Shown here: positions 10,110-16,956 of the stretch, piece after piece
Layout: every line of letters starts with the position of its first letter
How positions within the stretch are numbered: the stretch's first letter is position 1
DNA from: a virus
Lineage: Duplodnaviria > Heunggongvirae > Uroviricota > Caudoviricetes
Reading direction: 5' to 3' (one strand)
DNA length: 16,956 nucleotides
IMG/VR virus record: IMGVR_UViG_3300045988_103067
Made by a program: the position numbers and the translations under genes
Notes under the pieces: model-generated
What the model was told of the DNA's origin: nothing
The model's input: only the letters and a program-made list of their open reading frames with translations
Databases searched by the model: none

Positions 10110-10554
10110 GTTTAAGCGTTTTGAAGACCGGCTGACCGGACTGATTGAGTCGCTGTCACCGTCAGGGCGTCGGCGACTGAGTGCAGAACTGGCGAAACGT
10201 CTGCGGCAGAGTCAGCAGCGCCGGGTGATGGCACAGAAAGCCCCGGACGGCACACCCTATGCGCCACGCCAGCAGCAGAGCGCCAGAAAAAAGACCGGTC
10301 GTGTTAAGCGAAAAATGTTTGCGAAACTTATCACCAGTCGTTTTTTGCATATCCGCGCCAGCCCGGAACAGGCATCAATGGAATTTTACGGCGGGAAGTC
10401 ACCGAAAATCGCCAGCGTGCATCAGTTTGGTCTGTCGGAAGAAACCCGGAAAGACGGTAAGAAAATTGATTATCCGGCGCGTCCTCTGCTCGGCTTTACC
10501 GGTGAGGATGTGCAGATGATTGAAGAGATTATTCTGACTCACCTCGACCGTTAG
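10102..10554 (+). CDS. S: Tail completion protein
   Basis: 150 aa, the length of P2 gpS; overlaps the end of R. Confidence 0.85.
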   Translation: MNEFKRFEDRLTGLIESLSPSGRRRLSAELAKRLRQSQQRRVMAQKAPDGTPYAPRQQQSARKKTGRVKRKMFAKLITSRFLHIRASPEQASMEFYGGKSPKIASVHQFGLSEETRKDGKKIDYPARPLLGFTGEDVQMIEEIILTHLDR

Positions 10555-10620
10555 TTGTGCCATTCCCGACACCTCATCGTCACATTGCCGCCGGTATGAC
10601 CCGGCGGCATCCTTCCCGTT

Positions 10621-11256
10621 ATGAACACTCTCGCAAATATTCAGGAACTCGCGCGCGCACTGCGCAACATGATCCGCACCGGCATTATCGTCGAAACCGA
10701 CCTTAACGCCGGTCGCTGCCGTGTGCAGACCGGCGGCATGTGCACCGACTGGCTTCAGTGGCTGACCCATCGCGCAGGACGTTCGCGCACATGGTGGGCA
10801 CCTTCCGTGGGGGAACAGGTGCTGATTCTGGCCGTGGGCGGTGAACTCGACACGGCGTTCGTTCTGCCGGGGATTTATTCCGGCGATAACCCCGCGCCGT
10901 CTGCGTCGGCGGATGCCCTGCATATCCGTTTCCCTGACGGGGCGGTGATTGAGTATGAACCCGAAACCAGTGCACTCACGGTAAGCGGAATTAAAACGGC
11001 CAGCGTGACGGCTTCTGATTCTGTTACTGCCACGGTGCCGGTGGTCATGGTGAAAGCGTCAACCCGCATCACCCTGGACACCCCGGAGGTGGTCTGCACC
11101 AACAGACTGATTACCGGCACGCTGGAAGTGCAGAAGGGCGGGACGATGCGCGGCAACATTGAACACACCGGCGGTGAACTCTCATCAAACGGTAAGGTAC
11201 TGCATACCCATAAACACCCCGGCGACAGCGGCGGCACAACCGGGAGTCCTCTATGA
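10621..11256 (+). CDS. V: Baseplate central spike protein
   Basis: 211 aa, the length of P2 gpV; first gene of the V-W-J-I baseplate operon. Confidence 0.88.
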   Translation: MNTLANIQELARALRNMIRTGIIVETDLNAGRCRVQTGGMCTDWLQWLTHRAGRSRTWWAPSVGEQVLILAVGGELDTAFVLPGIYSGDNPAPSASADALHIRFPDGAVIEYEPETSALTVSGIKTASVTASDSVTATVPVVMVKASTRITLDTPEVVCTNRLITGTLEVQKGGTMRGNIEHTGGELSSNGKVLHTHKHPGDSGGTTGSPL

Positions 11257-13046: not shown

Positions 13047-15296
13047 ATGAGCACAAAATTCAGAACCGTTATCACCACTGCCGGTGCAGCAAAGCTGGCA
13101 GCGGCAACCGCGCCGGGAGGGCGGAAGGTCAACATTACCACGATGGCCGTCGGGGATGGCGGTGGTAAATTGCCTGTCCCGGATGCCGGACAGACCGGGC
13201 TTATCCACGAAGTCTGGCGACATGCGCTGAACAAAATCAGCCAGGACAAACGAAACAGTAATTATATTATCGCAGAGCTGGTTATTCCGCCGGAGGTGGG
13301 CGGTTTCTGGATGCGTGAGCTTGGCCTGTACGATGATGCTGGAACGTTAATTGCCGTGGCGAACATGGCCGAAAGTTATAAGCCAGCTCTTGCCGAAGGC
13401 TCAGGGCGTTCGCAGACCTGCCGTATGGTCATCATCGTCAGCAGTGTGACCTCAGTGGCGCTGACCATTGACACCACAACGGTGATGGCGACGCAGGATT
13501 ACGTTGATGACAAAATTGCAGAGCATGAACAGTCACGACGTCACCCGGACGCCTCGCTGACCGCAAAAGGTTTTACTCAGTTAAGCAATGCGACCAACAG
13601 CACGTCTGAAACACTGGCCGCAACGCCGAAAGCGGTTAAGGCCGCATATGACCTGGCTAACGGGAAATACACTGCGCAGGATGCCACCACAGCGCGAAAA
13701 GGTCTTGTCCAGCTCAGTAGCGCCACCAACAGCACGTCTGAAACGCTCGCCGCAACACCAAAAGCGGTAAAGGCAGCATATGACCTTGCTAACGGGAAAT
13801 ACACTGCACAGGACGCCACCACAGCGCGAAAAGGTCTTGTCCAGCTCAGTAGCGCCACCAACAGCGATTCTGAAACGCTTGCGGCAACGCCAAAGGCGGT
13901 AAAGGCAGCATATGACCTCGCTAACGGGAAATATACCGCACAGGATGCCACCACAGCGCGAAAAGGTCTTGTCCAGCTCAGTAGCGCCACCAACAGTGAT
14001 TCTGAAACGCTGGCTGCAACACCAAAAGCGGTGAAGTCTGCCTATGACAATGCTGAAAAACGTCTTCAGAAAGATCAGAACGGTGCGGATATTCCTGATA
14101 AAGGACGCTTCCTGAGTAACATTAATGTTTACAGCAAAGGTGAAGTGGATAAGAAAAAGGGAATGCGAAAGTATTCGTTTGCAGCCCCTGCAAATGTCGT
14201 TGCCGGGAAGTGGTATCCCGTTATCTTTCGCCGTGCTGCCAGCCTTTCAGGAGAAATGGCATCCCGCGTCGTTATTTCCACTGGTTGTTATAACAGCGAT
14301 TATGTAATGAATAACTGCGAGTTTAATGGCATGGTTATGCCCGGAGGCTGGACTGATCGTGGTTCATATGCGGCAGGTTATTTCTGGACGTATCAGACTA
14401 ATGAGCGTTCAATTCATTCCATTGTTACAAGCCTGAAAGATGATGATGTATGTAGTGTTTTTTATGTTGAAGCCAGAGCTTTCCCTGTACAAATTCTTGC
14501 AGAGGAAGGGCTAACGGTTATTGTTCCGACAGAGGATTATGTCGTCGGTCAGACGACATATAAGTGGGGGGCAACTAATCCCGCTACAGAAAGCACGAAC
14601 GCGCAGGCTATTCTGGATTTTAAAAATGGGCGCGGTTATTACTGCTCACATCCATTTATTTCCAGCCTTTCAGGAAATGCTGCAACAGCAACAAAGTTAG
14701 CGAACGCAAGAAATATTAATGGTGTCAGATTTGATGGCTCTGCCGATATAAATATTAATACACTGGTTTCCAGAAACCGTGTTACTGCATTAGGTGGGAG
14801 CGTAAAGGGGACACCAGGTATTCAGATGTATGAGGCATACAACAATGGCTACCCAACAGCCTATGGTAATGTGCTTCATCTCACTGGTGTAACCGCAGTA
14901 GGAGAGGGTGAGTTACTTATTGGCTGGAGTGGAACCAGCGGTGCTCATGCTCCGGCATATATTCGCTCCCGACGAGATACCACAGATGCTAACTGGTCTG
15001 GATGGGCGCAACTATATACAACTGCTCATAAACCCTCAGCGGGAGATGTTGGTGCATACACCAAAGCTGAGTCAGATTCACGTTATGTGAGAGACATGCG
15101 GCTGGGCGGTGCATCTACATATAAACCAGCAAATAATGGTATTACATGGACGCATCAGGCTCCGTCAGGTTGCGTATATACCGGCATTATTGTTCAGGAT
15201 ACCGGCTCAAACTCTGCCGATAACATTGGTGGCGTATATTACAGACCGGTGCAGAAATACATTAACGGGACATGGTATAACGTGGCGCAGGTATAA
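13047..15296 (+). CDS. H: Tail fibre protein, with an expanded internal repeat array and a low-GC receptor-binding C-terminal part
   Basis: 749 aa. The N-terminus (MSTKFRTVITTAGAAKLAAATAPG...) and the C-terminal tail (...YINGTWYNVAQV) are P2 gpH-like. It is about 80 aa longer than P2 gpH (669 aa) and contains four tandem 44-aa repeats. Confidence 0.9.
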   Translation: MSTKFRTVITTAGAAKLAAATAPGGRKVNITTMAVGDGGGKLPVPDAGQTGLIHEVWRHALNKISQDKRNSNYIIAELVIPPEVGGFWMRELGLYDDAGTLIAVANMAESYKPALAEGSGRSQTCRMVIIVSSVTSVALTIDTTTVMATQDYVDDKIAEHEQSRRHPDASLTAKGFTQLSNATNSTSETLAATPKAVKAAYDLANGKYTAQDATTARKGLVQLSSATNSTSETLAATPKAVKAAYDLANGKYTAQDATTARKGLVQLSSATNSDSETLAATPKAVKAAYDLANGKYTAQDATTARKGLVQLSSATNSDSETLAATPKAVKSAYDNAEKRLQKDQNGADIPDKGRFLSNINVYSKGEVDKKKGMRKYSFAAPANVVAGKWYPVIFRRAASLSGEMASRVVISTGCYNSDYVMNNCEFNGMVMPGGWTDRGSYAAGYFWTYQTNERSIHSIVTSLKDDDVCSVFYVEARAFPVQILAEEGLTVIVPTEDYVVGQTTYKWGATNPATESTNAQAILDFKNGRGYYCSHPFISSLSGNAATATKLANARNINGVRFDGSADININTLVSRNRVTALGGSVKGTPGIQMYEAYNNGYPTAYGNVLHLTGVTAVGEGELLIGWSGTSGAHAPAYIRSRRDTTDANWSGWAQLYTTAHKPSAGDVGAYTKAESDSRYVRDMRLGGASTYKPANNGITWTHQAPSGCVYTGIIVQDTGSNSADNIGGVYYRPVQKYINGTWYNVAQV
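13566..14050 (+). repeat. Tandem direct repeat array inside H: three full 132-bp units (at 13566, 13698, 13830) and a partial fourth
   Basis: The nucleotide sequence repeats with a 132-bp period, and the protein shows TNSxSETLAATPKAVKAAYDLANGKYTAQDATTARKGLVQLS four times. This is the tail-fibre-repeat type of motif seen in side tail fibres of other phages. Confidence 0.85.
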
Positions 15297-15299
15297 TTT

Positions 15300-15827
15300 A
15301 TGCAGCATTTAAAAAATATTACGGCGGGTAATCCAAAAACGGTTGAACAATATCAATTGACAAAGGGCTTTGATGTTGTCTGGTTTTTTTCAGAAGATGG
15401 TAAGAACTGGTACGAAGAACAAAAGTATTTTGCTGATGACACGATAAAAATAGCGTACGACAAAGATAATATTATCCGCTATGTGGAAAAGGATGTGACA
15501 GCTATCAGACCGGATGGATTAAGTGTGGTTGAAGTGGCGGATATTACTGCTAACCGACGGACGGACATTTCAGGGAACTGGATGTTTAAGGATGGCAAAG
15601 TGATTAAACGCATTTATACGGCAGAGGAATTGCAGCAGCAGGCAGAAAACCGGAAAGCTAGACTTCTTGCAGATGCTGAATCCGTGATTTTGCCGCTGGA
15701 GCGCGCTGTCAGGTTGAACATGGCAACAGAGGAGGAGCGCACACGGCTGGAGGCTTGGGAACGCTACAGCGTTGTGGTCAGTCGTGTGGATCCTGCAAAT
15801 CCTGAATGGCCGGAAATGCCGCAATAA
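15300..15827 (+). CDS. G: Tail fibre assembly chaperone
   Basis: 175 aa, the length of P2 gpG; directly downstream of H. The conserved C-terminus ...[14 protein letters not shown] is typical of P2-type tail fibre assembly proteins. Confidence 0.85.
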
Positions 15828-15861
15828 GTTGTATAAGCTCTGGTGTGAGATTACATATCTA

Positions 15862-15912
15862 TGGCACAGAGTAAAGCCTAATCTGACAGTCCGCTCTGTG
15901 CCAAGAGCGGAC
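15862..15912. repeat. Two overlapping, mutually exclusive inverted repeats just downstream of G
   Basis: TGGCACAGAG (15862-15871) pairs with CTCTGTGCCA (15894-15903), a 10-bp stem. GTCCGCTCT (15889-15897) pairs with AGAGCGGAC (15904-15912), a 9-bp stem with a 6-nt loop. The arms overlap, so only one can form at a time. Neither is followed by a T tract. Confidence 0.5.
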
Positions 15913-16320
15913 GTTACTACTACTCGACCTAAAGTAAAGTAATTGTACTCATTAAATAGTGGTAATTGGGTCTGGTGCTTAATCGAACGAAATCTCATGT
16001 TAGGCGAAAAAAACGTCTGAAAAATCGATTAACACATACACCTGTGTACTATGGCCGTTATTCAATTTAAAAGGAACCATTTCCGATATGATTCACTGTC
16101 CATAATGTTTTGATTTATTAAAAAAGAGCCTTAGAGTGTGAAACCATTACGTTGAGTGGCGAACACCATTAATAAATTCTGCTTATACTTACAGCATATA
16201 TTATGTTCACGTCATATAACCATGGCAAATAAGATATTGCACATCAAGCATGATTATGATAGTGATTACAAAAATGAAGAATCTTAGATAAAGGATTAGT
16301 AAGTGGTTACATATAATTCA

Positions 16321-16956
16321 ATGTTGTTACCCCCCCCTAAATCTTGGGACGAATTTGAGGATATGTGCAAAAGTTCATTCCAACTGCGATGGTCCAATCC
16401 TAATCTGAACAGACATGGACGGTCAGGGCAGCGGCAGGATGGAGTTGATGTATATGGTGATGACTCTCTTGGGCGTTTCGTTGGAATTCAGTGTAAAAAT
16501 ACAGTATCAGGAATCAGTACGGCGACAATCGATGATGAATTACTCAAGGCTGAAAAATTTCGCCCAAAAATTACGGTTCTTTACATCGCTACGACAGCGC
16601 CCAGGGATGTTAGCATTCAGCGCTATGTAAGAACACTCAATGATGCCAGACAATTAAAAGGCCTGTTTCCTGTCGATGTGGTTTTCTGGGAGGATATTAG
16701 CTTTGATTTAAGCAAAGACCCAGCTGTACTCAAAATGTACTACCCGCAAATGTTCGAACGACACCAACCGACGAGGGAAGAATTTTTGCGCAAGAGAGAT
16801 ATCTCAAATTTGTCGACATTGTTGAATGTTATTGATTTTCATTCAACAATAGACCATTTGCAGTGGGGCGCAAAATACATTCATTCATTAATTATTGAAG
16901 AATACGATAATATTTTGAACATTTTAAACTCACCTGTTTTTCAACTGAATGATACA
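16321..16956 (+). CDS. Mrr-like (PD-(D/E)xK / PD-QxK) restriction-endonuclease-fold protein, 3'-truncated by the window edge; candidate anti-phage cargo at the Z/fun-type locus
   Basis: This ORF is missing from the supplied track because it has no stop inside the window. By hand, the frame is open from ATG 16321 (in-frame TAA at 16315) to the last base, 212 codons. The N-terminus reads ...WDEFEDMCKSSFQLRW...GRSGQRQDGVDVYG...GRFVGIQCKN, which fits the W-EFE / G-x-Q-x-D-G-h-D / h-Q-x-K pattern of Mrr-type nuclease domains. Strongly AT-rich. A TATAAT hexamer at 16312-16317 sits only 4 nt from the ATG, so the exact start is uncertain. Confidence 0.6.
   Translation, partial: MLLPPPKSWDEFEDMCKSSFQLRWSNPNLNRHGRSGQRQDGVDVYGDDSLGRFVGIQCKNTVSGISTATIDDELLKAEKFRPKITVLYIATTAPRDVSIQRYVRTLNDARQLKGLFPVDVVFWEDISFDLSKDPAVLKMYYPQMFERHQPTREEFLRKRDISNLSTLLNVIDFHSTIDHLQWGAKYIHSLIIEEYDNILNILNSPVFQLNDT

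Follow-up and report, generated by a model that had tools for sequence, protein, structure and literature searches.

The 16,956-base-pair (bp) stretch of DNA studied here (hereafter the window; IMG/VR record IMGVR_UViG_3300045988_103067) represents the late-gene half of a P2-like prophage, and its tail fibre gene H contains an in-frame tandem array of 132-bp repeat units. The late-operon order V-W-J-I-H-G is the same as in P2 and in annotated prophages, and the open reading frame (ORF) upstream of H encodes a baseplate protein of the P2 gpI type (PF09684). The H product consists of a PF12571 domain followed by four PF03406 (Phage_fiber_2) stretches. The homology of the PF12571 domain to the N-terminus of P2 gpH, with 96.5% identity over amino acids 1-170, places the protein among the P2-type gpH of Peduovirus. 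The same 749-amino-acid gene is found in Escherichia coli ARS-C101 (98.4% nucleotide identity), where it carries the RefSeq label 'tail fiber protein'. Because the Pfam domains, the P2 gene order and the label of this close homologue agree, we assign the gene as H. The following features of H, numbered from the first letter of the window, are relevant to the array:

13047..15296, plus strand: gene H, P2-type tail fibre protein, 749 amino acids (ORF, translation, Pfam, gene order and RefSeq)
13047..13499, plus strand: N-terminal tail-collar / baseplate-attachment domain, amino acids 1-151 (PF12571 Phage_tail_fib, E = 4.4e-58)
13557..13688, plus strand: repeat unit 1, amino acids 171-214, with the divergent head LTAKGFTQLSN (units 1-4 from in-frame unit comparison)
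13689..13820, plus strand: repeat unit 2, amino acids 215-258, 'NSTSE' type
13821..13952, plus strand: repeat unit 3, amino acids 259-302, 'NSDSE' type
13953..14051, plus strand: repeat unit 4, truncated, amino acids 303 to about 335; homology ends just past ...PKAVKSAYD
13677..13996, plus strand: exact direct repeats over the unit boundaries, one of 51 nucleotides (13683-13733 = 13815-13865) and one of 56 nucleotides (13677-13732 = 13941-13996)

Tandem Repeats Finder reported a single array in the entire window, located at 13593-14048 (period 132, 3.5 copies, 91% matches, no indels, score 716), and an ungapped repeat search returned three copies of 226 nucleotides with a spacing of exactly 132 nucleotides. 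In the H frame the units start at amino acids 171, 215, 259 and 303 (nucleotides 13557, 13689, 13821 and 13953). The self-identity of 13557-14051 at an offset of 132 amounts to 0.865, whereas other in-frame offsets give at most 0.346 and a codon-shuffle control (n = 1000) gave 0.287 +/- 0.023 with a maximum of 0.364. No comparable offset signal occurs elsewhere in the window. The repeat array is real and far beyond chance. On the protein level, PF03406 matches H in four stretches (264.8 bits, gathering cut-off 22; E = 1.7e-80), the best of which spans positions 1-41 of the 42 positions of the profile. The original prediction of four near-identical 44-amino-acid units thus holds for the four in-frame PF03406 stretches, but not for the two ends of the array. 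Unit 1 has the head LTAKGFTQLSN in place of TARKGLVQLSS in units 2-3, which corresponds to 6-7 non-synonymous codons, and in unit 4 about 33 of the 44 residues are homologous before a different linker follows, so that the array comprises three full units and a truncated fourth.

In pairwise comparisons the units differ at 8-24% of their bases. Unit 1 shares 76-80% nucleotide identity with units 2 and 3, whereas units 2 and 3 are 91.7% identical to each other and differ in 8 synonymous codons and 1 non-synonymous codon. Over the 96 nucleotides common to all of them, units 2-4 are mutually 90-93% identical. The first 44 nucleotides are identical in units 2-4 (13689-13732, 13821-13864 and 13953-13996), and synonymous differences are found in the remainder. 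This identical head, which the 96 distinct units taken from relatives do not share as a rule, suggests a local homogenisation, possibly by gene conversion, in the lineage of the window. A role of the head as a conserved DNA element was also considered and rejected, as the third-position diversity there is like that of the rest of the unit in the 96 distinct internal units of the relatives.

The units were counted in a sample of relatives with a hidden Markov model built from the window's own units. This sample comprised 80 IMG/VR loci, i.e. the best 80 of 425 matches ranked by similarity to the window, and 23 species-representative GTDB genomes that encode a relative of the H N-terminal domain. 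Among 102 complete genes, 57 have four units, 15 have two, 13 have five, 9 have three and 7 have a single unit; the one further 'gene', which has no unit, is a spurious 29-amino-acid reading. This shows a copy-number range of 1 to 5 in the gpH family. Four units are the commonest state among the sampled gpH sequences with an N-terminal domain at least 95% identical to that of the window. Two other gpH clades, retrieved with divergent N-terminal queries, are mostly of the single-unit type (73 of 73 and 55 of 66 genes), as confirmed by eye. Two units are present in the phages P2 and Wphi, three in fiAA91-ss and four in P22H4, vB_EcoM-12474II and Yersinia vB_YpM_115. In 54 complete E. coli genomes a single place covers at least 80% of the gene, and 41 complete E. 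coli genomes among the matches listed are collinear with it over exactly 2250 bp at 97.4-98.4% identity. The Phage_fiber_2 array as such is already known: the repeat is a known Pfam family, the gene is well known and the allelic state is the commonest one. In the literature searched, we found no paper discussing copy-number variation of this repeat in gpH.

H was then compared with P2 gpH (AAD03286.1, AF063097), the reference to which the original prediction had appealed. Both proteins are encoded at the same position in V-W-J-I-H-G, use the same Phage_fiber_2 type of unit, share the C-terminal ...KYINGTWYNVAQV, and are followed by the chaperone gene G. With 749 amino acids H is indeed about 80 amino acids longer than P2 gpH (669 amino acids), and this gap resolves into +88 amino acids for two extra units and -8 amino acids in the distal part. 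The first 242 residues are nearly identical in the alignment, and similarity resumes only in the last ~70, which are again P2-like. In P2 gpH the repeat ends with ...PKAVK of the second unit and an unrelated TVMDETNKKAPLNSPALTGTP module follows, whereas the window has four units, a linker like that of the Mu fibre protein S, and a mostly unrelated distal part. The suspicion that P2 has fewer units is therefore borne out by alignment: it has two, the second being cut after ...PKAVK, and not the same four as the window. Calling the array expanded is justified relative to P2, but four units occur more often than any other number in the sample of close relatives, and the array is an old one (see below). 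P2 represents the short-array end of the sampled E. coli gpH group with N-termini at least 95% identical. As P2 is a short-array member of a group with near-identical N-termini, it is not unusual to be longer than P2 gpH.

The age of the array becomes clear when its units are compared with those of the relatives by position. Over the first 96 nucleotides, unit i of a relative is mostly 92-100% identical to unit i of the window and 69-93% identical to the other units; for unit 1 against the relatives' unit 1 the values are 92-100%. This positional match extends to genes whose distal parts are very dissimilar. Since each unit has synonymous markers of its own that reappear in the corresponding unit of the relatives, the array is old and not freshly expanded. 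Moreover, the same four positionally orthologous units are combined with at least six distal modules (the 642-, 696-, 736-, 740/748-, 749- and 772-amino-acid types), and from this it follows that the duplications predate the module exchanges. Together, these comparisons show that the units are positional orthologues in many relatives and that the protein sequence is under purifying selection. We have weighed the opposite scenario, in which the array expanded recently and only in the prophage lineage of the window, from a two-unit gene of the P2 type. P2, Wphi and some prophages do have two units, and the identical 44-nucleotide head of units 2-4 could be read as a trace of such an event. This head is, however, not general in relatives, units 2, 3 and 4 differ by 7-10% over the common 96 nucleotides, mostly synonymously, and the same four orthologues stand behind at least six distal modules, which makes the duplications older. 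A recent expansion is thus very improbable.

A related question is whether the copy number of the window could be an assembly artefact, with units either collapsed or spuriously expanded. Arrays of this kind were predicted to be a common source of assembly collapse, and in general this proved right. A database search with the 170-amino-acid N-terminal domain (P0001-P0120) retrieved only fragments of 100-298 amino acids, many of them labelled 'partial', and 41 of the 120 fragments stop inside or right after a unit (e.g. P0002, P0004, P0064), which indicates that draft assemblies commonly break in the array. In addition, an E. coli genome contains a median of 2 and at most 14 places that match parts of H. 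For the window itself, the 2250-bp gene recurs collinearly in the 41 complete E. coli genomes mentioned above, and on these grounds it is not an assembly artefact. Isolated phages also have four units. Furthermore, the units differ by 8-24% and the markers in each of them are those of its positional orthologue, a pattern that errors of collapse or duplication would not recreate, and in one further IMG/VR locus (L013) the units are 99-100% identical to those of the window over the first 96 nucleotides. We therefore regard an artefact as practically negligible. The four-unit array is a genuine, old and widespread allele, and neither a fresh expansion nor an artefact.

In practice this means that the copy number of the window can be trusted, its significance being otherwise mostly a matter of housekeeping, and that truncated 'partial' fibre proteins in databases are best read as assembly ends, since assemblies from short reads frequently stop within the array. 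In the cluster P0001 (229 amino acids, 688 member sequences) the reading frame is lost within unit 2. In E. coli 602687 (L106, NZ_CP189657.1 17375-19624) the 2250-bp H is annotated as two pseudogene pieces with the wording 'incomplete; partial in the middle of a contig', which indicates that some carriers hold a disrupted H copy. Several other isolates, from hospitals or of enterotoxigenic E. coli (ETEC), show the pattern 'tail fiber protein | hypothetical protein'.

How units are gained and lost can be followed when genes with the same distal part are compared. When the distal parts were clustered at 85% identity or higher, most clusters had a single copy number and three were mixed. In two of these, 18 four-unit genes stand against 1 five-unit gene, and 11 five-unit genes against 1 four-unit and 1 three-unit gene; in the third, the cluster of the window, there are 10 four-unit genes and 1 five-unit gene. 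The distal type of the window thus occurs with 3 units (705 amino acids), 4 units (749 amino acids) and 5 units (793 amino acids). In the five-unit allele, from IMG/VR (L007; 793 = 749 + 44 amino acids), the unit-3 type is duplicated, and the extra copy and the adjacent one are identical except at 1 of 132 nucleotides; in the common 709-amino-acid type the extra unit differs at 6-11 nucleotides. The three-unit allele of the complete E. coli genome PapRG-06-3 (L273) lacks the unit-2 type, and its distal part is 99.3% identical to that of the window. In two complete E. coli genomes among the matches listed, PapRG-06-3 being one of them, H spans 2118 bp. All copy-number variants observed differ by whole in-frame units. 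The natural 3-, 4- and 5-unit alleles with one distal type (L273, window and L007) bear out that such an array can expand and contract, as had been predicted. Exact repeats of 51 and 56 nucleotides suffice for RecA-dependent unequal exchange or slippage. It is reasonable to propose that the long direct repeats over the unit boundaries mediate unequal homologous recombination or replication slippage, by which units would be added or removed. Gain and loss of units is recurrent but rare.

One could go further and regard the array as a fast-switching contingency locus for fibre length, in which variation is the purpose and not an occasional accident. The coexistence of 3-, 4- and 5-unit variants with the same distal part, the very recent duplication with 1 difference in 132 nucleotides, and exact repeats of 51-56 nucleotides, long enough for RecA-dependent exchange, would agree with this idea. 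Yet within distal types about 5% of the genes have a minority copy number, and the unit-specific synonymous markers, which frequent exchange would erase, persist over lineages. The repeat also lacks the form of a simple-sequence contingency locus. Whereas classical contingency repeats have units of about 1-9 bp and shift the frame or the promoter spacing, the unit here measures 132 bp, i.e. 44 codons, and its changes are in frame. Next to H-G we noticed neither a dedicated recombinase gene nor inverted repeats, no systematic search having been made there. All in all, a contingency locus appears improbable, and we retain an old array with occasional changes of whole units.

The distal boundary of the array coincides with a module junction, which involves the following features:

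14037..14132, plus strand: linker SAYDNAEKRLQKDQNGADIPDKGRFLSNINVY, amino acids 331-362, shared with the phage Mu fibre protein S
14133..15293, plus strand: distal exchangeable receptor-binding part, mostly unalignable to P2 gpH save for the C-terminus; GC content reduced to 0.42-0.47
15300..15827, plus strand: gene G, tail fibre assembly chaperone (PF02413 Caudo_TAP, E = 3.7e-34; position of P2 G)

Throughout the genes inspected, repeat homology in the last unit stops directly after PKAVK, and at least three types of downstream module follow. The classes after PKAVK are SAYDNAEKRLQKDQNGADIP with various distal modules (as in the window), TVMDETNKK... (P2) and AANDNANGRVP... (other enterobacteria). 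The linker SAYDNAEKRLQKDQNGADIPDKGRFLSNINVY precedes several different distal modules in relatives, and H 288-362, which comprises the last unit and the linker, has its counterpart in Mu S 99-173 (E = 4.6e-16). The C-terminus of H also matches Mu S, as well as a 'short tail fiber' in the PDB. At the end of the array the GC content falls from 0.55 to 0.44. Between 14000 and 15800 of the window, which covers distal H and gene G, it drops from about 0.55-0.60 to 0.42-0.48, and this fits a horizontally exchanged module of tip plus chaperone. The prophage with the closest backbone, that of ETEC 504237 (L112, NZ_CP025862.1; 97.6% identity over 88% of the window), has a different fibre of 772 amino acids.

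ETEC 504237 and its relatives harbour two P2-like prophages each. The first has the backbone and the downstream cargo of the window together with the 772-amino-acid fibre, and the second, elsewhere on the chromosome, has the window's 749-amino-acid fibre type (97.4% identity). In view of these two prophages the window appears to have arisen by recombination between such elements. The pattern of module junctions found here is the mosaic one that has reportedly long been described for P2 H, by Haggard-Ljungquist et al. in 1992 (cited in PMC13100340). The gpH of L-413C is a mosaic that retains the P2 N-terminus (PMC7460101). In P2 gpH the receptor-determining region is C-terminal, and chimeric fibres assemble and tolerate module replacement (PMC9942202, PMC9594776). 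Binding of the receptor by the C-terminus and trimeric fibres are known for P2, L-413C and Mu (PMC9942202, PMC7460101, PMC11915804), and the trimers of Mu are anchored with their N-terminus to a baseplate wedge protein (PMC11915804).

The array follows the N-terminal domain for baseplate attachment and precedes the exchangeable part that binds the receptor. From this position, the units may stack in the trimeric fibre as a proximal shaft or spacer, in which each unit would add a fixed increment of reach, so that the copy number would partly determine how far the fibre reaches. Together with the linker, the conserved last unit may serve as a homologous joint at which phages swap distal receptor-binding modules. 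Overall, we consider it highly probable that H of this P2-like (Peduovirus) prophage carries a genuine, old and widespread in-frame array of four PF03406 repeats that only rarely gains or loses whole units and that would act as shaft spacer and as joint for tip exchange.

Several points weigh against parts of this account. The samples are biased towards relatives of the window and are not phylogenetically independent. The minority copy numbers amount to about 6 alleles among about 116 genes, and since the copy number is largely fixed per distal type, gain and loss of units must be infrequent. In an AlphaFold2 monomer model of H amino acids 1-400, based on a 46-sequence alignment, the N-terminal domain is confident, with a predicted local distance difference test score (pLDDT) of about 85-95 over amino acids 11-130, but the pLDDT is below 50 at amino acids 172-194 and 205-400, i.e. 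over almost the whole array. Searches of PDB sequences with the whole protein and with a unit profile found the units only in constructs of Mu S. The shaft or spacer role and the length increment are therefore what we infer. A paper of 2012 likewise stated that little was known of the structure and function of Phage_fiber_2 repeats (PMC3368898). It is conceivable, although we think it rather unlikely, that the 3-, 4- and 5-unit alleles with one tip are adaptive and match how far the fibre reaches to the depth of the host O-antigen or capsule, the array then being a spacer adjusted in length by unequal recombination. In any case, these natural alleles with the same tip provide a ready series for shaft-length tests in the engineering of P2/P4 delivery particles.

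The array has a counterpart on the opposite strand, for which the original prediction had offered an explanation:

13577..13993, minus strand: antisense ORF, 138 amino acids, TTG start; a by-product of the repetition and not a gene

Its translation is itself a repeat of 44 residues and contains no Pfam family, and the frame is cut by stops to at most 110 codons in 24 of 56 four-unit genes with intact H. By frame arithmetic, the third codon positions of the ORF coincide with those of H. For this reason a synonymous/non-synonymous test of the ORF is uninformative, and the ORF was judged by stops in relatives. A genuine gene nested in H on the opposite strand would account for 138 open codons, and owing to the coinciding third positions synonymous changes of H would often be silent in it as well. 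However, its product would be a repeat of the same 44-residue period, its length corresponds to a stop-free unit repeated about 3.2 times, its frame is broken in many close relatives with intact H, and it was never annotated in the records inspected. A nested gene is extremely unlikely. The ORF, rightly predicted to be a mirror artefact of the array, is the by-product of repeating a stop-free unit and should not be annotated.

Several named systems share parts of this architecture. One group comprises P22H4 / phage 9W, vB_EcoM-12474II-V, Yersinia vB_YpM_115 and their relatives, as well as RefSeq WP_096843717.1, in which the collar, the units at amino acids 171/215/259/303 and the linker are as in the window. 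The gpH of P22H4 is 88% identical to H over the whole protein. The distal receptor-binding parts of the four-unit Peduovirus phages differ from one another (642, 748 and 764 amino acids). The fibre protein S of phage Mu (gp49; PDB 5yvq, 8ju3, 9ki1) has one Phage_fiber_2 unit at Mu S amino acids 115-157, followed, as in the window, by a NAxxRLxKDxNGADIP linker; it has a related C-terminal tip, and a chaperone gene lies downstream (PMC11915804). Mu S differs from H in having a single unit instead of an array and in its other N-terminal anchor. P1 S has been grouped with Mu S, and both phages switch tips via DNA inversion (PMC11915804, PMC9942202), whereas the window has one H-G pair. An invertible fibre switch of the Mu G or P1 C type was not found: there is one H and one G, and 15828-16956 contains neither a second Caudo_TAP nor an ORF of invertase size, crossover sites not having been specifically searched.

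The same repeat (Pf2 = PF03406) was first described in lambda Stf, and in lambda Stf, StfR and the collagen-like EPclB it lies between other fibre modules (PMC3368898), the comparison with H being by Pfam assignment. Unlike H, this group has an N-terminal PfN domain (PF08400) and belongs to a siphovirus or podovirus context. In the Enterococcus phage EfV12-phi1, an in-frame tandem duplication in the tail-fibre gene, variable in copy number among genomes, arose in response to host resistance (PMC6365445). Its units of 1.8 kb arose within days in the laboratory, whereas those of the window measure 132 bp and are ancient and largely stable.

Finally, three further positions of the window deserve mention. 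At the left end (1-1147) the GC content is 0.30-0.37, compared with about 0.56 in the phage genes, and an ORF on the plus strand (179-1057, 292 amino acids) lies just outside the portal gene Q, in the position that holds old/tin in P2. In the closest E. coli prophages, the match to the window starts only at about 1148, and one of them has an AAA ATPase in this slot. Scans with Pfam, PADLOC and NCBIfam assigned no family to this ORF, possibly an uncharacterised cargo or defence gene, or to a second ORF, which begins with GTG at 16303 on the plus strand. The latter lies behind gene G, at the Z/fun position of P2, in a region of low GC content (15828-16956; about 0.37). It stays open for 218 codons to the end of the window and corresponds to a 311-amino-acid hypothetical protein (WP_001399106.1); the ORF region is 99.8% identical on the nucleotide level in 13 complete genomes, some of them from strains named ETEC. 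By eye, its D...QxK motif (VDVYG...GIQCK) is reminiscent of a PD-(D/E)xK nuclease. Between genes S and V there is a gap of only 66 bp (10554-10621), so that this variable slot is empty in the window; it is occupied by orf30 in P2 and by a 786-bp hypothetical gene on the minus strand in the prophage of E. coli ARS-C101.

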